Source: Bdellovibrionota bacterium
GTDB lineage: Bacteria > Bdellovibrionota_C > UBA2361 > JBGSMV01
Direction: 5' to 3'
Length of the DNA stretch: 37,988 nt
Assembly: GCA_041739995.1 (NCBI GenBank)
Contig: JBGSMV010000075.1
Coordinates: 1-37,988, forward strand
Under the pieces are notes generated by a model. The model made no database searches. It was given only the letters and a program-made list of their open reading frames with translations, and was not told the DNA's origin. Below, piece by piece: positions 1,861 to 37,885 of the stretch; position 1 is the first letter of the stretch, and every line of letters begins with the position of its first letter. The position numbers and the translations under genes were made by a program.

Positions 1861-2964
1861 CTAAGTACCTCGCGCACACGCGAGCACCTCTTGAGCCTTA
1901 CTGTCCCGCTCCTCTGAACCCTTAAAGACTGCGGTCACATGCCCCACCTTTCTCCCTTCCCTTGGCGCCTTGCCATACCAATGAAAATGCACCTGAGGCA
2001 TTGCCAACAATTTCTTGGCGTCAGGTCGCACACCGATTAGATTCACCATCAGCGAACTTCCCTTGGGCCTAGTACTTCCAAGAGGCATTCCCATCACTGC
2101 GCGAATATGATTCTCGAATTGACTTGTTTCAGAGCCCTCAATAGAGAAGTGCCCAGAATTATGAACCCGCGGCGCCATCTCGTTCGCCACTAGCTTACCA
2201 TTTACCTCAAAGAGCTCTATGGTCAGCACTCCCACATAGGAAAAGTGTGCAAGCACCCGCGTGGCGAAGTCCTCTGCTTCTTGCTGAAGACTTTCCCCAA
2301 CTCTATTTGCTGGACAACGCGAGGTACGCAAAATACCTTGATGATGAACGTTCTCAATCAAGGGATAGAACTTAGGATCTCCCGAGCGGCCTCTCACCGC
2401 TATGATTGATAACTCTCTTGTGAATTCAACTAAGCGCTCAACAATGACGTCTTGTCCTTTCAATGTGGAGAGCGCTTCGAGTATTTTATCTTCCGAACGA
2501 ACCACCGCCTGGCCTTTGCCGTCGTAGCCAAGCCTTCGTGCTTTAAGCACACATGGTACGCCGAACTTCGAGACAATGCCCTTATGGGACTCATTCGCTT
2601 GAACCGCTGGCAACTCAATCGAGTCAACTACGGGAATACCTAATTTACGAAAGCATTCTCGTTCTGCGAATCGATCTTGCGCCACTCGCAGCGCTTCAAT
2701 ACCAGGCTGCAGCGCTACGCGTGAAGCCACATACTCTGCCGCCTCTACCGGCACGTTCTCGAACTCATAAGTGACCGCATCGAGTCCTTTGATAAAGCTA
2801 TCGAGGGCTTCGGTATTGGAATAATGCTCGCACATGTGAGGAGCTACTGCGCTCACCGCGCTGGGGGGCGTAGGGTCAAAGAATCGGAAACTACACCCCA
2901 ATGGATATCCGGCCAGAGCGAGCATGCGCCCAAGCTGACCAGCACCGAGAATTCCAATGTTCAA
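1861..2964 (-). CDS. purK: N5-carboxyaminoimidazole ribonucleotide synthase
   Basis: [59 protein letters not shown]; directly downstream of purE. Confidence 0.96.
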
Positions 2965-3605
2965 CGCGGCTCTCCACGTGGTTTGCGCTTGTTGGATCGC
3001 GCGCCACTTGCAGGCGAGCGTCCCTTTGGTTCACGTCGCTCTATCGCGCGCGGCCCCATCTGCTGCGTAGAAGACATTCGCGGCTTGGCGGAGCGCAAGC
3101 GCGTAGTGCGCTTTACCGTACGCGGATCTCCAATGCCTTGAATGCGCTCAGTCTGCGTAGCACGGTAGTGCCGAAGCATTTTTCCAACGGCGGCATCAGT
3201 CAACGCAAGAATAGCCGCAGCCAACAACGCCGCGTTCACCGCTCCCGCACGTCCAATCGCCATGGTGCCGACAGGAATTCCTGCTGGCATCTGCACAATA
3301 GAAAGCAACGAATCCACACCGCGCAATGTTCTGGATTCAATCGGAACCCCCAGCACTGGGAGCAGCGTTTTCGCGGCACACATGCCCGGAAGATGCGCCG
3401 CACCGCCGGCTCCAGCGATGATAACTCGAAGCCCACGCCCCTCAGCTTCTTCGCTGTAGCGAAACAGCAAGTCTGGCGTTCGATGCGCGGACACTACTTG
3501 AACCTCATACTCGATTCCGAGTGCCCCAAGCGTGTCGGCCGCCTCGCTCATCGTCTCCCAGTCAGACTGAGATCCCATGATGATTCCGACCTGTGGTCGA
3601 AACAC
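2961..3605 (-). CDS. purE: N5-carboxyaminoimidazole ribonucleotide mutase with basic C-terminal extension
   Basis: [49 protein letters not shown]. Start placed at the in-frame GTG at 3605 because the ORF-track start (3677) overlaps icd. Confidence 0.93.
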
Positions 3606-3639
3606 GAGGCTACGCGGAGTCGAGCCTCGTTGGCGTCTC

Positions 3640-5091
3640 TTATTCGCCTTGTAAATGGGAATAACCGGGGACCCCATCGTAATTCCTCAACGTTTCAATT
3701 TTTGCAATTACTAAGCTCTTCTCATTAACCTTCCCCATCAGCTCAACCACTTCAGCAAAAGGCACTGACTGAGCTTTAGGATCGCCTACCACGAAGCGAC
3801 AACGGTACTGATCTGAAAGAAACGTCTCTGGCATTCCTTCTGGCCAGACCTTCACGCCGCGATTGGACATGCCCTGTAATTTGAGCCCCGCGCAGTTACA
3901 CGCAACCAACTTTTCCGCGATCGCCTTTGGATCTCCGAGATCGGTGACGTACAAATCAACTCCAACCACATCCTGTTTTACCTCACCTGCAGGCCTGGTG
4001 TAGAACTTTGATGCGTCGATCATCGCCGCTGCGCGATACTGCACGGCTTTAAGCGTCTCAGGCGTCTTACCGAGGCGCTTAACCACTGCATTCGCAAATT
4101 CCTTGGTTCCGACTTTCTCGCGCGAACTTCCCTGGGTATAAATGTCGTAAGTATGAATGCCTTCTTCAATGGTGCGAAGCCATGCGTTGTGCACTCGAGA
4201 TGCGGCATCGGCCTCACCGATATGGACTAGCATCATTACTGCTCCCATCAGCAGCCCTGAGGGGTTGGCGAGATTTTGTCCTGCACGTCGCGGCGCAGAA
4301 CCGTGAATAGCCTCAAACATGGCACATTTATCACCAATATTCGCTGAGCCTGCGATACCGACCGAACCAGCAATTTGAGCCGCCACATCGGAGAGAATAT
4401 CTCCGTAAAGATTCGGCATTACGACTACGTCGAACACTTCTGGTGAGTCGGCGAGCTTCGCGGCTCCAATATCGACAATCCAATGCTCATTCTCTATGTC
4501 CTTATACTCCGTTGCAATACGATCAAAGACTTTGTGGAAAAGACCATCAGTGAACTTCATGATGTTGTCTTTGGTAAAGCAGGTCACCTTTTTGCGGTTG
4601 TTTTGACGCGCGTACTCGAAAGCATAGCGCACAATCTTTTCGCAGCCCGGCGCAGTGATTAACTTCAGCGTTTCGTATGTCTCAGGGGAAATTCGATATT
4701 CAATTCCAGCGTAAAGATCTTCTTCATTCTCTCGTACGATCACCACATCCATGTTCGGGTGCTTCGTATCAATGAACGGATGGTAAGAGACACAAGGACG
4801 CACATTGGCGAAAAGCCCAAGGGTCTTTCGAACGGTGACATTGAGACTCTTATATCCACCACCTTGAGGAGTGGTGATCGGAGCCTTTAGAAAAACTTTG
4901 GTGCGTCGCAGCGATTCCCAAGCGCTGGGCTCGATACCGGAAAGATGCCCTTTATTGTAGACACTCTCGCCAATCTCTATCTGTTCGAGCTCTAACGCAG
5001 CTCCTGCAGCATTTAAGATCTGCAAGGTAGCCGCCATAATTTCAGGCCCGATGCCATCGCCATGCGCTACTGTAACGGCTGTTTTTTTCAT
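3640..5091 (-). CDS. icd: NADP-dependent isocitrate dehydrogenase (long form with C-terminal domain)
   Basis: [62 protein letters not shown]. Confidence 0.95.
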
Positions 5092-7267: not shown

Positions 7268-8260
7268 ATGACCGATCGCTCGCCCTCATCAAAGGAAAAG
7301 CCAGTTACTCGACAAGCTTCGGGGTCCTCTGCCCTGGTCTTGAGCGCCTCACGTCGCCATGTGACCTTAAGTCTCGATCGACAGACCGAAGTCACAGGAA
7401 CTGTTTCCGTGCGAGATCTAGCCCTTGTTCCGGGAGACTTAGTGCAGGTCTCTCATGAGTCCGGGGAATACTTTGCAACCGCTTTGATTCAGCGCCGCAA
7501 TCTGCTCTCGCGTTCCTATCGTGGAGATGAACGTCCAATTGCGGCGAATATTGACCATCTCTTTATCGTTGGTGCGGTTCCTCCACTTCTCAAAACTTTG
7601 TCCATAGATCGCATGGCGGTAGTCGCACACCAACAATCGGTTCCCTGGAGTCTGGTCGTAAATAAGATCGACCTAGGTACTTCGGCCTGTGACAAGATAG
7701 TCGAGCTCTACAGTGGATTAGGCGTGCCAGTGTACCAGACTGCCGCAAAGTTCGGTCTAGGCCTTGAGCTTTTTCAGGACCTACTACTAACACTGCGCGG
7801 CCAGACTCTAGCGTTGTGTGGTATTTCAGGAGTTGGCAAGAGCACGTTGCTGAATGCAATTGCACCAGAGGCCGCTCGAGTCACCGCAGACGTAAGCGAA
7901 AAGTCTGGTCAGGGCCGTCAAACCACCACTCATGCCAGAGGAATTCTATTCCACCCAGTCGCGGCCGGATCACCGACTGCCCCGCAGGGGAATGTCGAAG
8001 AGCTGTCGCCAGAAATAGTGATGATAGACCTGCCTGGGATTCAGCAATTTGGTGTGGAACACCTTACAGTCGAAGACGTGCGTGCTGCGTTCCATGACAT
8101 CATGGAAGTGAGCGCTGAGTGTGAATTTTCAAATTGTTCCCATGTAAAAGAGGAAAAGTGCGCAGTGCGAGCAGCAGTAGCCTCTGGACGCCTTTCGTTA
8201 TCGCGCTTTGAGTCTTTTGTGCACATGTGCCAAGAATTGGAAGCAGCAAAGCCGTATTAG
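7268..8260 (+). CDS. rsgA: ribosome small subunit-dependent GTPase A
   Basis: [37 protein letters not shown]-terminal Zn motif [14 protein letters not shown]. Confidence 0.93.
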
Positions 8261-8286
8261 CCGCAATTGGGGAGTGCAGAGGTCTG

Positions 8287-9060
8287 ATGAACTCCGAATC
8301 TACTCAGCAATCACTTGAAATACTGAGTCACCCATCAGCGAGCTCACCTATCTCAGATCTTTCGCGATCACTACCCTCTCAGTCTGAGTCTCCCCAAACT
8401 CTAGATTGGAAAACCGCGCTTCAAGGTGAGCGCGAGGAAGTTTATTTTAAGTCGTTGCTTGAATTCATTGCGAACGAGCGCGGTGCGGGAAAAACTATTT
8501 ATCCGCAGAATACTGACGTATTTAACGCGCTCTCTCTCACCCCATTTGCGGATGTCCGTGTCGTCATTCTTGGACAAGACCCTTATCACGGACCGAATCA
8601 GGCGCACGGCCTGTGCTTTTCCGTACAACGCCGCATAAAACCACCACCTTCACTCGTGAACATTTTTAAGGAACTAGAGAGCGATGTGAGTGTCAGTCGC
8701 CCATCGCACGGCTGTTTGGAATCTTGGGCGAAACAAGGCGTTCTGTTGCTCAATGCGGTGCTGACTGTGGAAGCCAGTAAACCTGGCTCACATGCTAATC
8801 GTGGCTGGGAGCGCTTTACCGATCGAGTGGTGAGCGAACTAAATCAGAAACGTGAAGGTCTGGTCTTCCTGCTGTGGGGTGCCTACGCTCAGAAGAAAGG
8901 AGCGATGATAGATAATTCAAGGCACCTTGTACTATCGGCTCCCCATCCCTCGCCCTTCTCGGCACATAGCGGCTTCTTCAACTGCCGCCACTTTTCATTG
9001 GCGAACCAGTACCTCCGAGAGCGCAACCTTAGCCCAATAGATTGGTCACTCCCCGAATAG
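8287..9060 (+). CDS. ung: uracil-DNA glycosylase, family 1
   Basis: [44 protein letters not shown]; start placed at ATG 8287. Confidence 0.95.
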
Positions 9061-9065
9061 CGTCG

Positions 9066-9629
9066 CTAATCTGCTCGACCAGCAGTCTGTTCGATAAAAG
9101 CCTTTACGATTGGCTTTGGGATAATGTGGTAGCCATTGTTGGGTTGTAAACTCGAGCGCTCACCAGTAAATTCAAGATGCACATGCAATCCATCGACACT
9201 TCCAATCTGTAAACAATCGTCCAAATCGAAGAGGTCATCAGTGTGCACCGCTTGCATGCCACTGAGCAGCTCTTGCTTGGCTCGGCTTTTCACCTCCTTC
9301 TCATTGTCAGCGACCACAAAGGCATTGGCATGCAACTCAGTGAATTGCCCAGGCAAGTAAGCTCCAAGATTAACGAAAAATAGTTTTTTACCTTCGGTTT
9401 GAGGCGCCTCGCGCAAACAAACACGATGCCCATCGACCTGTTCTAAGGCTACCCAGGAGTCAAGGTGCAAGCCTTCAGGTGAACCGAACCAAAGCTCAAG
9501 TAACCGCGGGTAGGTTTCCTCGATGGATCCACCCCTCACAAAGACCACATCATGCAACTCGGTGTTGCAGCCGGTTGCCCTACCCCCTAGGTAAACGGCA
9601 AAAAGTTTCACATCCATAGAAATTTCCAT
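9066..9629 (-). CDS. DUF1543-like protein
   Basis: KLFAVYLGG...ELHDVVFV, WFG...GLHLDSW, KLFFVNLGAY, H.DD..DLDDC resemble DUF1543 proteins as I recall them. Confidence 0.72.
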   Translation of the reverse strand: MEISMDVKLFAVYLGGRATGCNTELHDVVFVRGGSIEETYPRLLELWFGSPEGLHLDSWVALEQVDGHRVCLREAPQTEGKKLFFVNLGAYLPGQFTELHANAFVVADNEKEVKSRAKQELLSGMQAVHTDDLFDLDDCLQIGSVDGLHVHLEFTGERSSLQPNNGYHIIPKPIVKAFIEQTAGRAD

Positions 9630-10010
9630 TGGGAACAGCGACGGGCTTTCGCCTGATAGACCTTCGAGAGATTACCGAAACAACTAGTGCATTCAAGCAC
9701 TCCGCTGGCACGACAGACCAGAATATCCAATGAAACAAAAAAGATCTGAGAGGTACTCGATCAAAAAAATCGTTTGTTAGGACTTGATTAGTGTCGCCGT
9801 TCTCGATAGTGGTCAGAGCTCGCGCTGAAGTAGATGCTCCAGTACGAAATACAATCGAGAATTGAGTAGATTTGTCTAATGCTTTGTAGCGGTTAGTGGA
9901 TTCGTAGCCATCTTTTAACCGCTGCAAAGCTCTTGGAAGTTAAAGGTTTTCTATTTCCTCTTCGATTTCGCGTTTCGGTGGTGCGTCAGCTTCTATTTCT
10001 GTTTTTTGGC

Positions 10011-10076
10011 TGGCTGACCTACTGCCTTCCCCGAGTGGCTGACCCACTGCCTTTCCCGAGTGGCTGACCCACTACC
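10011..10076. repeat. 25-bp tandem repeat, ~2.6 copies
   Basis: TGGCTGACCTACTGCCTTCCCCGAG / TGGCTGACCCACTGCCTTTCCCGAG / TGGCTGACCCACTACC. Confidence 0.9.
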
Positions 10077-10081
10077 GAACT

Positions 10082-11158
10082 GCGCGACATTGAGGAGGGA
10101 TTGTCCAAACGAGTGGCCCCATTGTGGGACCTCTCTAAGGACGACTCAATGAAGCAAAGGAAAACTTGCCTGTAAGGGCAGGGATGGTGTGGGAGGAGCT
10201 AGTCGATGAGGCGTCCTTCCAGATTGTGGGACTCTGTCACCTACAGGTGGCCGGGTATCAGGCGCTAGGTTGGCCGATTGATCCGGGTTAGGAATATTGC
10301 GACGAACGCCTTCGGGCGTAGCTGAGCCGTATTTCGAGCCCCGGCGTGGAAAGAAGTCGTGAACCTTCAATCCATGAGTACGCCGGATCGGACCAACCTT
10401 GCCGCGCGCCTGACTCTACCGACCCGCGGCGATCCGACAGAGATAATCGACAAATTCTCTGGCGGCCACCAGGCCCAACTCGACCCCCTGGGCAACCCAA
10501 TCCTCGGCCTACGCGATAAACCCATCGCAAAGGTTCGAACGGACGGTTGATCTCCCAGCAACTCGAAAGGGCGTAATGGAAAAGTTCCATCGCTACACGG
10601 TTTGTGGATCAAAACGGAACGGGGCATGGGTACGGCAACCCGCTGTGTGCCCTCCGTTAATGCCTATGGTGTGTCACGACACCTGAAGCGACATCGTGCC
10701 GTTCGCACGGAATCGCCTGGCGGCCCTCCCGGCCGCCAGGCGACTTTGCACTTTTCTAGAGGACCCCCCCGGGGTCCTCTAGTGAGTGAGTTGGTGAGTG
10801 GAGCTCTCGGGTTAGCGAGAACGCGGCGTGTCACGGTGCGGTGCAAGGCACCTGACTGTTTTTCATGTCACGTTTCGTAACACCCTTGAGGAGGTAGCCG
10901 CCCAGGCTCCCCCCACTCCCACCACCTGGGTGAGGCGTCGGTCCCCTGCAAGGGATGACGTCGCACTCCTGATCGCTGACTACTGCGTTTGATCGGCGAG
11001 GTCTCGCAGTACCCGTCCTCGAAGCCTGCTTCGTGCGCTGCAGGTTCGATGCCGGAGTTCACCTCGCGAAGTAAACCCCCTCGGGTTGATGCTCTTCGCG
11101 TTGATGACACGATCAGTAGGGGAATGGAGGCCAAGTGGCGATTTGCACTTGGCCTCCA
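10082..11158 (+). ncRNA. candidate large structured non-coding RNA (~1.1 kb), family unassigned
   Basis: No protein-like ORF; many nested and local helices (see findings); C(UUCG)G and GNRA loops read on the + strand. Confidence 0.6.
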
Positions 11159-11159
11159 C

Positions 11160-11194
11160 CCCTCCCAGGCTTTGGCCCTCCCAGGCTTTGGCCC
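11160..11194. repeat. 16-bp tandem repeat, 2 copies
   Basis: CCCTCCCAGGCTTTGG at 11160-11175 and 11176-11191, then CCC. Confidence 0.88.
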
Positions 11195-11321
11195 ACGGTA
11201 TTAATTATTTGAGTATTTAGTGGTTATTTTTCAGAGGATTTTCCCAAGGTCTACTTCCAAGAGCTGCAGCAACGTGTCCACATATTCGCAAAACCCAGGC
11301 GGCATCCGTCCCAACCCGCGT

Positions 11322-13652
11322 CTACACCTTAACTGACTGAGCTTTGCCCTTAGACAATACCAGTGGCTTGCTCACAAATCCGAGTGCCTCCTGCTCACGG
11401 GTCACACGCACAGTACCGCCACGCTTAAGCTTTCCAAAGAGAATTTCATCAGCGAGAGGATCCTTTATCTCCCTCTGTATCAAGCGCGCCATCGGTCTTG
11501 CGCCAAGCACAGGATCAAATCCCTTCTGCGCGAGGTACTCCCGTACTTCTGTATCCACTATTAATTCAATCGATCGCTCTTTAAGTTGTCCAGAGAGCTC
11601 GGCCAACAACTTCTCAACGATCTTCTGAATGACCGAAGGTGCCAGTGAACTGAAATGTATAATCTCATCGAGACGATTTCTAAACTCAGGCTTGAATAAG
11701 CGCTTAATCGCCTCTTCACGGTGTCCGCTTACTGCCTTATCGCCGAATCCAAGTGCTGCCGCCTTCTCCGAACCGGCATTAGTAGTCAGAATGAGGACGA
11801 CATTCCTAAAGTCTGCCTTCTTTCCATGCGAGTCTGTTAGACGCGCATCGTCCATCACCTGCAATAGAATATGAAACAGATCCTCGTGAGCCTTTTCAAT
11901 TTCATCAAACAGCAACACCGCATGCGGCTGCCTTCTTACCAAGTCAGTTAACTGCCCACCTTCCTCGTAACCCACATATCCCGGCGGTGCGCCAATCAAC
12001 CGAGCGACGGCGTGCTTTTCCATGTATTCCGACATATCAAAGCGATGGAAATGTACTCCGAGCTCTCTGGCGAGCGCTCTTGAAAGCTCTGTTTTGCCCA
12101 CTCCAGTTGGCCCGGCGAAGAGAAAACAACCAACGGGCTTATCATCGACTTTGAGACTCGCGCGACTACGCTTAATCGATCGCACCAGAGACCGAACCGC
12201 AGGTTCTTGCCCAAATACTTGTGAACTAAGCCGCTGTTCAAGAGTTTTAAGTAGCTCTTCATCCGAAGAACTGACACTCTTAACAGGAACTTTGGCGATA
12301 CTCGAAACCACACGTTCGATTTCACGCTCTCCGATAACCTTCCTACGCTTGGCCGAATCTAGAAGCGCGTTCGCTGCTCCGGCTTCATCTAATACGTCGA
12401 TGGCTTTATCAGGTAAAAAGCGATCTGAAATGTGCTTGGCCGACAATTCTGCTGCCGCCTTCAAAGCACTGGGCAAATATCGAACAGCATGATGACTTTC
12501 AAAGCGTGCCTTTAATCCCTTAAGAATTTGTATGGTCTCCGCAATACTCGGCTCGCTTAAATCAATCGGTGAAAAACGCCTGCTGAGTGCTCGGTCTTTC
12601 TCGAAACTCTTTTTGTAGTCTTCGTGGGTAGTGCTGCCGATGCAACGCAGCTTTCCTGATGCCAGTGCGGGTTTAAGAAGATTTGCCGCATCCATGGATC
12701 CACTGCCGGTGGCGCCCGCGCCTACGATGGTGTGAATTTCATCTATGAACAAGATTGCATTGTCGAGTCGCATAAGCTCGTCAACGATCCTTCGCAATCG
12801 TTCCTCAAACTCTCCTCTAAATTTCGTTCCCGCGATGAGAGACCCCATCTGCAGAGAGAACACCCGAGCCCCTTGCAACTTTGACGGAACTTTTCCATCA
12901 ACGATTCGCTGCGCAATCGCGGCCGCCATAGCGGTCTTTCCCACTCCTGGATCGCCTAAAAATAGAGGATTATTCTTCTGACGACGGCAAAGGATTTTCA
13001 ATGCACGCTCTACTTCTTCCTCCCGTCCGATCACGGGGTCAAGCTCGCCAGAGGTTGCCTGTTTACATAAATCTTCAGTGAACTGCTCAAGCCCCTTGCG
13101 ACGTTTGCGTACGGGACCTTCCTCCTCATCCTCGTCACCGTCGAAAGCATCAGCATCTTCCGACTGGCTTGCGCTCATCGCTGAACTTTTGAGCGGGTTT
13201 ATTTTAGAGACTCCATGCGCTACGAAATTCAAAACATCGAGCCGCGTCACTCCCTGCCTTTCTAAGGCATGAACCGCATGCGATTCATCCTCGCTAAAAA
13301 TAGCGATAAGCACATCAATATGCGTGATAAGATCTTTGCCGGCAGCCTGCATGTGAATGATAGCTCTTTGAAGCACACGTCTTAACGCAGGAGTTTGCTG
13401 AGGCTCCATGTCTCGCGCCGCTGCGGGCACATCAGAATCGTCTGATTCAAGCGTCTCAATCGTGTCAAAAAATCTTTCGATGTCTCGGCGTGTTTCTCCT
13501 TCGTCGCCGCCACAGTTGCGAATGACACCAGTGATATCTTCGTCAAAAAGCAGCGCAAACAGCACGTGCTCGACACAAAAGAAAGCGTGATGCCGAGTGA
13601 CCGCTTCACGAAATGCTGCCTCTAGGGTGAAACTGAGTTCTGTACTAAACAT
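11322..13652 (-). CDS. clpA: ATP-dependent Clp protease ATP-binding subunit ClpA
   Basis: Two AAA+ modules (GDPGVGKT; GPTGVGKTE, RFDMSEYMEKH, LIGAPPGYVG), no ClpB middle domain, downstream of clpS. Confidence 0.95.
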   Translation of the reverse strand: MFSTELSFTLEAAFREAVTRHHAFFCVEHVLFALLFDEDITGVIRNCGGDEGETRRDIERFFDTIETLESDDSDVPAAARDMEPQQTPALRRVLQRAIIHMQAAGKDLITHIDVLIAIFSEDESHAVHALERQGVTRLDVLNFVAHGVSKINPLKSSAMSASQSEDADAFDGDEDEEEGPVRKRRKGLEQFTEDLCKQATSGELDPVIGREEEVERALKILCRRQKNNPLFLGDPGVGKTAMAAAIAQRIVDGKVPSKLQGARVFSLQMGSLIAGTKFRGEFEERLRRIVDELMRLDNAILFIDEIHTIVGAGATGSGSMDAANLLKPALASGKLRCIGSTTHEDYKKSFEKDRALSRRFSPIDLSEPSIAETIQILKGLKARFESHHAVRYLPSALKAAAELSAKHISDRFLPDKAIDVLDEAGAANALLDSAKRRKVIGEREIERVVSSIAKVPVKSVSSSDEELLKTLEQRLSSQVFGQEPAVRSLVRSIKRSRASLKVDDKPVGCFLFAGPTGVGKTELSRALARELGVHFHRFDMSEYMEKHAVARLIGAPPGYVGYEEGGQLTDLVRRQPHAVLLFDEIEKAHEDLFHILLQVMDDARLTDSHGKKADFRNVVLILTTNAGSEKAAALGFGDKAVSGHREEAIKRLFKPEFRNRLDEIIHFSSLAPSVIQKIVEKLLAELSGQLKERSIELIVDTEVREYLAQKGFDPVLGARPMARLIQREIKDPLADEILFGKLKRGGTVRVTREQEALGFVSKPLVLSKGKAQSVKV

Positions 13653-13655
13653 TTC

Positions 13656-13970
13656 TCAGTCCTCCTCCATTCGACACCGTAGCGGATAGTCGGCACTACG
13701 TGCTCGTTCATGTACCGTGTGAACCTTCGCCTCTGCGATTTGCTTGGCGAATATCCCGCACAAGCCTTGGCCTGATTTGTGGACCGTCAACATGACCTGC
13801 ACTGCCTCAGCCGGAGATTTTTTGAATACCCCTTCAAGGATAGACACGACAAAGTCCATAGTGGTGTAGTCGTCATTCAGGAGATACACCTTGAATTGCT
13901 TAGGCAGTTCCACCTTCGTTCGACTACGCTCAGCCGTAGCAATTCCGCTTGAACTCTCGCTATCTGCCAT
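13656..13970 (-). CDS. clpS: Clp protease adaptor ClpS
   Basis: KVYLLNDDYTTMDFVV, MLTVHKSG.G.CG, AEAKV, YPLRC. Confidence 0.96.
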   Translation of the reverse strand: MADSESSSGIATAERSRTKVELPKQFKVYLLNDDYTTMDFVVSILEGVFKKSPAEAVQVMLTVHKSGQGLCGIFAKQIAEAKVHTVHERARSADYPLRCRMEED

Positions 13971-37808: not shown

Positions 37809-37885
37809 TGGTCGGGCTGAGAGGATTTGAACCTCCGACCTCTCCCACCCCAAGGGAACGCGCTACCAGTCTGCGCCACAGCCCG
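37809..37885 (-). tRNA. tRNA-Pro (GGG)
   Basis: CGGGCTG...TGGTAGCGCG TTCCC-TTGGGGT-GGGAG ...GGTTCAAATCC...CAGCCCG-ACCA; 77 nt cloverleaf with encoded CCA. Confidence 0.95.

Follow-up and report, generated by a model that had tools for sequence, protein, structure and literature searches.

We find that a gene-free stretch of approximately 1.4 kb in the genome of an uncultured member of the Bdellovibrionota, a phylum of mostly predatory bacteria, is best explained as a single-copy gene for a large and highly structured non-coding RNA, encoded on the plus strand and occurring in one genus of the phylum. The stretch lies between a gene for a DUF1543 protein and clpA in the window analyzed here, the whole 37,988 nt of contig JBGSMV010000075.1. 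The RNA is most likely new, restricted to its lineage and a member of no described family, and we consider it reasonably probable that it is independently transcribed from the plus strand and processed to a structured product of at least 0.83 kb. To our knowledge, very few bacterial non-coding RNAs are longer than 500 nt. A preliminary description, made from the letters of the window, had proposed an undescribed large structured RNA at 10082-11158; this proposal is upheld by RNA contigs confined to a core of the stretch, by conserved ends that pair with each other, by structure-preserving change between two relatives, and by the lack of an Rfam match in any of three loci. Its extent of about 1.1 kb had to be revised on two counts: the unit is larger, reaching from approximately 9774 to 11273, and RNA was found for 10083-10911, which is less than the whole 1.1 kb. 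The parts of the unit, its neighbors, and the RNA contigs are listed in Table 1.

Table 1. Features of the structured RNA locus and its surroundings, in window coordinates
Feature	Position	Strand	Evidence and remarks
Left neighbor, DUF1543 gene	9066-9629	-	Pfam, E 1.5e-29; outside the unit
Conserved upstream box TTGTTAG..TTGAT.AG	9774-9791	+	Three-way alignment; left limit of the conservation common to the three loci
Leader hairpin	9881-9930	+	9881-9895 pairs with 9916-9930, 15 bp, one U-G; sequence and minimum-energy fold
Left arm of the long-range "frame" helix	9921-9940	+	Complementarity, conservation, minimum-energy and centroid folds
Leader helix H1	9955-10100	+	9977-9990 pairs with 10063-10076; extends to about 35 bp in the minimum-energy fold
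Tandem repeat, 25 nt x 2.5	10011-10073	+	Tandem Repeats Finder, 94% matches; each unit includes a copy of the H1 3' arm
Core found as RNA	10083-10911	+	Metatranscriptome contigs; sharp end at 10083
Two perfect G+C-rich hairpins, 13 bp and 12 bp	10713-10782	+	Sequence check
3' multiloop (10969-75/11110-16) and terminal 13-bp hairpin (11125-11158)	10969-11158	+	Minimum-energy fold; outside RNA-contig cover
Tandem repeat, 16 nt x 2.2	11160-11194	+	Tandem Repeats Finder, 100% matches
Conserved 3' end, including right frame arm 11253-11270	11233-11273	+	Alignment with G001
Right neighbor, clpA	11322-13652	-	Pfam; outside the unit
RNA contigs, run X5	10083-10588, 10761-10911		0-3 differences
RNA contigs, run X6	10083-10272, 10342-10517		0-3 differences
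RNA contig, run X7	10083-10485		0-3 differences
RNA contig, run X8	10251-10506		0-3 differences

The stretch folds far more stably than its surroundings. All 14 helices listed in the preliminary description were found where it had placed them, 12 of them as perfect reverse complements; the helix 10267-78/10387-99 has a one-base bulge, and the helix 10165-71/10176-82 uses G-U pairs. A recount likewise gave 43 G+C in 60 positions at 10681-10740, and the G+C content of the stretch as a whole is 57-61%, against 52.4% for the genome. Both the 3' multiloop and the nested helices of 10202-10451 form in the minimum-energy fold, and the core holds that nested series together with a UUCG loop (10311-14) and a GUAA loop (10172-75). 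The folding z-score against dinucleotide shuffles, a check that had been suggested with the original proposal, is -4.30 on the plus strand and -3.23 on the minus strand for 10083-10590 (100 shuffles). Across 9801-11300, 200-nt windows give z-scores of about -1 to -6.5, the window 9901-10100 reaching -6.46 on the plus strand vs. -1.91 on the minus strand, and 200-nt windows in the flanking genes stay mostly within ±1.5 with an extreme of -1.8. There are 153 perfect hairpins of at least 10 bp in the 3.8-Mb genome, and nowhere but here do three of them fall within 1.5 kb. The mean folding energy of the stretch in 300-nt windows is -0.41 kcal/mol/nt, compared with a median of -0.29 and a most negative value of -0.353 among the 58 other ORF-free gaps of at least 600 nt. 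No other ORF-free stretch of the genome is as dense in hairpins or folds as stably.

Comparison with known RNA families gives no assignment for this structure. We searched the 4,227 families of Rfam 15 with the gathering score as the criterion, and the sole match in the whole window is a tRNA at 37812-37885, so that the Rfam search proposed in the preliminary description returns no family for the region. At E ≤ 10 the region yields 12 matches, all far below cut-off (the best has 25.7 bits vs. a cut-off of 97); none is to a large RNA, intron or ribozyme family, and 9 of the 12 are to hairpin models of miRNA precursors. The loci of the two relatives described below give six matches, likewise sub-threshold and of the same sort. 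GOLLD, ROOL, OLE, HEARO, raiA, group I and II introns, and self-cleaving ribozymes have no Rfam match at the locus, and nothing observed here points to ribozyme activity. The earlier statement that tmRNA, RNase P, and rRNA signatures are missing also stands, as there is no rRNA match in Rfam and the genome carries both its RNase P RNA (C39:22696-23144; 258 bits) and its tmRNA (C41:45932-46326; 155 bits) elsewhere. A 6S RNA was found nowhere in the genome with a model that detects 6S RNA in only 5 of 14 control genomes. We also considered a protein sponge of the CsrB/RsmZ type and rejected it on GGA counts of 26, 20, and 16, where 26.8, 23.2, and 20.2 are expected; no shared enriched 5- or 6-mer was found. 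In literature searches on Bdellovibrio and on known large RNAs we found no large structured RNA described for the phylum.

Two relatives of the unit were found: one in a genome of the same genus (G001; the genome of the window is G000 hereafter) and one on a metagenome contig (L070). BLAST of the region against 61 relatives and 124 genomes of the phylum returned nothing except a 41-nt match in G001 to the right end of the unit, 11233-11273, which is 85% identical (E 1.9e-7; E 5e-6 with nhmmer). Pairwise comparison with G001 shows 81% identity at the left end, 9921-9962, and a further match at 9762-9791. The 1.1-1.3 kb between the conserved ends does not align between G000 and G001. The preliminary description had proposed collecting homologues by BLAST and nhmmer; this yielded the conserved ends in G001, and for the G000 interior it found no homologue.

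The conserved ends pair with each other. Positions 9928-9940 and 11253-11265 are perfectly complementary over 13 nt at a distance of 1312 nt, the helix reaches 17 bp with GCUGC/GCAGC past a 2-nt bulge, and it closes both the minimum-energy and the centroid fold of 9875-11285. The left arm is the same in all three loci save for an A>G change at 9938, and this is compensated by T>C at 11255, giving an A-U pair in G000 and a G-C pair in G001 and L070. In all three loci the complementarity of the arms spans 1.1-1.3 kb. Conservation ends at 11273 between G000 and G001, and between G001 and L070 it begins 150-230 nt upstream of the left arm and ends approximately 10 nt past the right arm. Within this upstream part, the 9-bp core of the leader hairpin, AGCTTTGCA/TGCAAAGCT, is kept in G001 and L070; the alignment places a C-G pair in these two loci at the position of the U-G pair in G000, and the 3' arm of the hairpin shares 10 nt with the start of the left frame arm. 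G001 and L070 have a 14-bp hairpin to which the 5' strand of H1 is homologous, and a block CG.T..GGTGGTG in H1 is conserved in the three-way alignment. Judged by these alignments, the frame and the leader are clearly homologous in the three loci. Further upstream, the conserved box at 9774-9791 might be a promoter, a guess made from its position alone.

The unit does not depend on the genes beside it. L070 carries both arms and is flanked by a collagen-repeat gene and a histidine-kinase gene, with no clpA; since its flanking genes differ, the unit is independent of its neighbors, in keeping with the earlier claim of "no associated protein." The DUF1543 protein has no match in any of four family relatives, G001 included, and in three family relatives (G002, G003, and G005) other genes directly follow clpA. 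The ClpA proteins of G000 and G001 are 74% identical.

Searches for further loci returned no others. Of the 124 phylum genomes, only G000 and G001 match a covariance model built from the leader and left arm. A pattern for the frame gave 22 loci in genome contigs, with the right arm present only in the contig of G001, and one match, in a member of the Pseudobdellovibrionaceae, sits within a 507-codon ORF; the 22 loci found in metagenome contigs include L070 as the only genuine one. A 16-nt pattern with two mismatches matched all of 61 genomes, and its reversed control matched most of them, so this search was uninformative. A single exact 16-nt match in another genome (G022) gave only the 16-nt arm when compared with the region by BLAST.

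Paired arms around a non-coding segment also invite an explanation at the level of DNA, in which the unit is an invertible (phase-variable) segment or a non-autonomous transposon and the arms are recombination sites. Like invertible segments and miniature inverted-repeat elements, the locus has inverted repeats of 13-17 bp around a non-coding segment of about 1.2 kb; the repeats recur 1.1-1.3 kb apart in three loci, the interiors differ between species, and the genomic context of L070 is different. We nevertheless regard such an element as quite unlikely. The unit is present in one copy in G000 and one in G001, where a miniature element or insertion sequence is expected in multiple copies, and the conservation that continues for approximately 150-230 nt beyond the left arm implies that the arms are not termini. 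Reading of the flanks revealed no target-site duplication, and the 28 ORFs scanned between 172 and 26442 include no recombinase, transposase or mobile-element gene. Moreover, the compensatory change and the G-U pairs suit pairing in RNA, and no strand-switch joint was reported for the RNA contigs described below.

The two relatives allow the evolution of an interior to be followed. The interior of L070 aligns with that of G001 (65% identity over 966 nt, E 4e-38), and in the alignable interiors about 60% of positions are identical and 40% of aligned positions differ. These differences have a non-coding pattern. Mismatches are spread evenly over the three codon phases (11/12/11, 12/13/10, and 20/19/21), so there is no codon periodicity; 22 of the 27 indels shift the frame, the other 5 being multiples of 3, and no ORF is common to the two interiors. 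That the locus is a broken or unusual protein-coding gene, as its stop-free runs of up to 110 codons might suggest, is therefore exceedingly improbable, the more so as every frame across 9963-11232 in G000 contains 9-20 stops, in agreement with the earlier remark that all ORFs here are short, and as the four longer internal ORFs tested (86-100 aa) match no Pfam family.

The same alignment argues for the preservation of base pairs. The G001 interior folds with z = -7.58 on the plus strand and -5.51 on the minus strand. We folded one sequence alone, scored its helices of at least 4 bp in the other sequence, and compared the outcome with substitutions shuffled within 60-column windows. In this comparison of two sequences, 224 of 331 predicted pairs are kept, vs. 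192.5 ± 7 in the local shuffles, a number that 0 of 2,000 shuffles equals; the remaining 107 of the 331 are broken in the relative. Double changes number 33-34 vs. 23 ± 4.2 in the shuffles (P 0.005-0.018, from the only two alignable sequences). On the minus strand there is also an excess, although a smaller one (25 double changes vs. 17.8, P about 0.035). The homologues that the preliminary description had proposed to examine thus display an excess of double changes and no codon-type conservation. We take this as real, if modest, evidence for structure-preserving evolution, based as it is on two sequences.

The interior of G000 stands apart from the other two. With nhmmer, comparison of G000 to G001 and L070 recovers the ends only. 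In a search with a covariance model built on the central hairpins, the expected place comes seventh (E 2.5), and the best match is on the other strand (E 0.13). G001 and L070 share 15 identical blocks, of which 11, including all of those of at least 15 nt, have no approximate match in the G000 interior, and the remaining four are 10- to 11-mers. A kinase fragment encoded by L070 shares 67% identity with G001, vs. 45% with its best match in G000, which suggests that L070 is probably a nearer relative of G001 than of G000; because of this, plain divergence may explain why the G000 interior cannot be aligned. Replacement of the G000 interior is equally possible, since four interior blocks of 15-20 identical bases are common to G001 and L070 and missing in G000. 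As the G000 interior has no detectable homology to those of G001 and L070, the three loci may carry different RNAs.

At 10666-10681 a GUCACG loop is closed by a 5-bp stem, resembling a hairpin that G001 and L070 have at a comparable relative position, possibly by chance.

RNA from the locus is present in environmental samples. According to a word index, nine metatranscriptome runs (sediment, 2020, and aquatic, 2024) and four DNA runs hold part of 9640-11320. We compared the contigs of four RNA runs (X5-X8), which give neither strand, level nor true ends, with positions 8000-13700. In all four runs, contigs 99-100% identical to the window are found, and all of them lie inside 10083-10911 (Table 1), at low depths of 2.9-7. 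Run X7 also contains a related piece of 44 nt. In three of the four runs, which have three study codes and come from at least two campaigns, a contig starts at exactly 10083, with no loose end. The tandem repeat near this position is, by our reasoning, unlikely to cause the common break, because the exact stretches that its copies have in common are about 20 nt long and so fall short of the 31-letter words used by the Logan index. The UDG and DUF1543 genes have no RNA contigs in the four runs, and the clpA matches are pieces of 33-53 nt that appear to come from other organisms, since they carry 3-6 differences and are embedded in longer contigs. The segments 9640-10082 and 10912-11320, which contain both frame arms, lie outside the contig cover, and we do not count this as absence. 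DNA carry-over would have covered the flanks too, yet they are bare, which argues that RNA of the core is much more abundant than that of its neighbors.

Such RNA might also arise from a non-functional spacer, that is, decaying foreign or mobile G+C-rich DNA that is transcribed incidentally and whose RNA persists because it is hard to degrade. The G+C content above that of the genome, the tandem repeats on both sides, a G000 interior with no detectable homologue in G001, L070 or the 124 phylum genomes, and the lack of such a gap after clpA in related families would all fit this explanation. We judge it unlikely: perfect hairpins of 12-13 bp and z-scores as low as -6.5 would be lost without selection, the ends are conserved and covary between species whose ClpA proteins have diverged as far as stated above, and G001 and L070 retain pairs above the level of the shuffles. 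There is also no sign of a mobile origin, as BLAST of the region matches no phage or plasmid, viral contigs match neither the frame pattern nor two interior stretches, and mobile-element genes are missing from the scanned ORFs.

Several features of the locus favor the plus strand. The tetraloops read as UUCG and GNRA on this strand, both in the window and in L070 (UUCG and GCGA); conserved helices contain G-U pairs, which would turn into A-C if the minus strand were read; the z-scores are stronger on the plus strand, most clearly at 9901-10100; and the excess of compensatory changes is larger there. If the minus strand were the one transcribed, the RNA would have its 3' end at 10083 and would belong to a neighbor, either to clpA as a long structured 3' UTR or to the DUF1543 gene as a leader. 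Both neighbors are encoded on the minus strand, which itself folds well (z = -3.2 and -5.5), and the contigs are silent on strand, but we find this alternative very unlikely: the RNA contigs leave 10912-11321 bare, and none of them joins the core to either neighbor; L070 has neither neighbor and G001 has no DUF1543 match; on this strand there is no hairpin followed by a U-run at 10083; and the loops, G-U pairs, and z-scores point the other way.

We propose that the plus-strand RNA is made from a precursor cleaved in its stems, because the RNA end at 10083 falls within a predicted long helix, namely in the 3' strand of H1 in the predicted fold of 9875-11285. A primary transcript of approximately 1.4-1.5 kb would start upstream of 9881 and end just past 11270. 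Its ends (9921-9940 with 11253-11270) would pair in a long-range helix of 13-17 bp, beside which the leader helix of about 35 bp (9955-9990 with 10063-10100) would form. A double-strand-specific nuclease would then cut the stems, as RNase III does in rRNA precursors, where flanking sequences pair in long stems. The RNA freed by this cleavage would be stable and G+C-rich, start at 10083, and measure at least 0.83 kb, and it would accumulate far above the neighboring mRNAs. A scan of 9400-11600 with the sigma-70 consensus gave 0 promoter-like sites; no convincing terminator was found at the 3' end, and one weak terminator-like site lies at 10835-10852.

The proposed precursor resembles an rRNA precursor in that sequences approximately 1.3 kb apart around a structured RNA pair in a long helix and in that the RNA end at 10083 lies within a predicted long double-stranded stem. 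It differs in having no rRNA match in Rfam and in a stem that has been conserved better than the interior, where rRNA shows the opposite, and here cleavage by RNase III would be by analogy. In the intervening sequences of 23S rRNA helices, too, a conserved basal stem carries an interior that varies, without homology, from one close relative to another. These sequences are shorter, lie inside rRNA, and are discarded, whereas in the unit described here the interior accumulates. As for invertible segments and miniature elements, the single copy, the lack of a nearby recombinase or target-site duplication, and the conservation past the repeats set the unit apart.

Among bacterial RNAs, the closest likenesses are to OLE, ROOL, GOLLD, and HEARO. 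Like them, the unit covers hundreds of nucleotides with many nested helices and multiloops, exceeds its surroundings in G+C content, has no obligatory neighboring protein gene, is present as RNA above the neighboring mRNAs (judged here from the presence of contigs), and has a narrow or patchy distribution. It departs from them in that it matches none of their Rfam models, that the locus is longer (0.83 kb or more as RNA, with 1.1-1.35 kb separating the frame arms), that three loci are known in which same-genus interiors cannot be aligned, a sign of fast sequence turnover, and that it has no phage or plasmid context. We guess that it is an architectural or scaffold RNA of the OLE, ROOL or GOLLD kind, and think a role as a protein sponge or as a regulator acting by base pairing less likely. 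OLE, ROOL, and GOLLD are reported to form homo-oligomers (PMC12286853).

A bolder possibility, which we find doubtful, is that the leader and the long-range stem form a frame for expression and processing that carries different, non-homologous giant structured RNAs in different species of one genus. The freed RNA, of at least 0.83 and perhaps about 1.2 kb, would then be a new ornate class, larger than any bacterial structured non-coding RNA except rRNA, and it might, like ROOL and GOLLD, self-assemble.

OLE, GOLLD, ROOL, and HEARO each opened unexpected biology. The layout of the unit described here is unusual, with paired ends that are conserved and an interior that has been replaced or has diverged past recognition. 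If confirmed, the RNA would offer a new large fold for structural work and a test case for how an architecture may be kept while the sequence of the RNA turns over.

Two short tandem repeats lie immediately outside the ends of the element described by the preliminary reading (10082-11158), one on each side. We find by repeat scan and predicted fold that the left repeat holds the leader helix's 3' arm in three copies, and this triplication allows three alternative pairings in the predicted fold.

Tandem repeats flanking the preliminary element
Repeat	Window position	Unit and copies	Location
Left	10011-10073	25 nt x 2.5	Immediately outside left end
Right	11160-11194	16 nt x 2.2	Immediately outside right end

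The DUF1543 gene adjoining the candidate RNA unit (9066-9629) has no match in any of four family relatives searched with its protein, including the same-genus genome G001, and may be a recent acquisition by the source genome. On the G001 contig that carries the related unit (L003), a 17-bp hairpin with no counterpart in the source genome is inserted within 1700-1810, separating the right arm of the unit (the 3' half of its frame helix) from the clpA stop codon. Upstream of the G001 unit, at the very start of the contig, lies another G+C-rich stretch (1-240; 64%) with many hairpins, including a perfect 19-bp hairpin at about 181-230; this stretch, which is interrupted by the contig end, could be a second structured RNA in G001.

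Elsewhere in the window, the one remaining G+C-rich patch (2800-3700; 59%) is purE, which encodes AIR carboxylase and is overlapped on the opposite strand by a spurious ORF; this patch is not a second structured locus. The lowest value of the cumulative GC skew falls at about 31 kb (about 31000) and is a possible sign of an origin or terminus of replication.

Between the window and the near-identical metatranscriptome RNA contigs there are three differences: G>A at 10139, in a terminal pair of the predicted fold; G>C at 10176, in a loop-closing G-U pair; and T>G at 10323, in an unpaired stretch. In addition, a 163-nt RNA contig (run X7, record 12) matches the window only at 10246-10289 (44 nt, 5 differences), its remainder being sequence unlike the window. 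The contig may be a piece of a related RNA from another organism, and it offers a possible route to homologues of the interior type found in the source genome.
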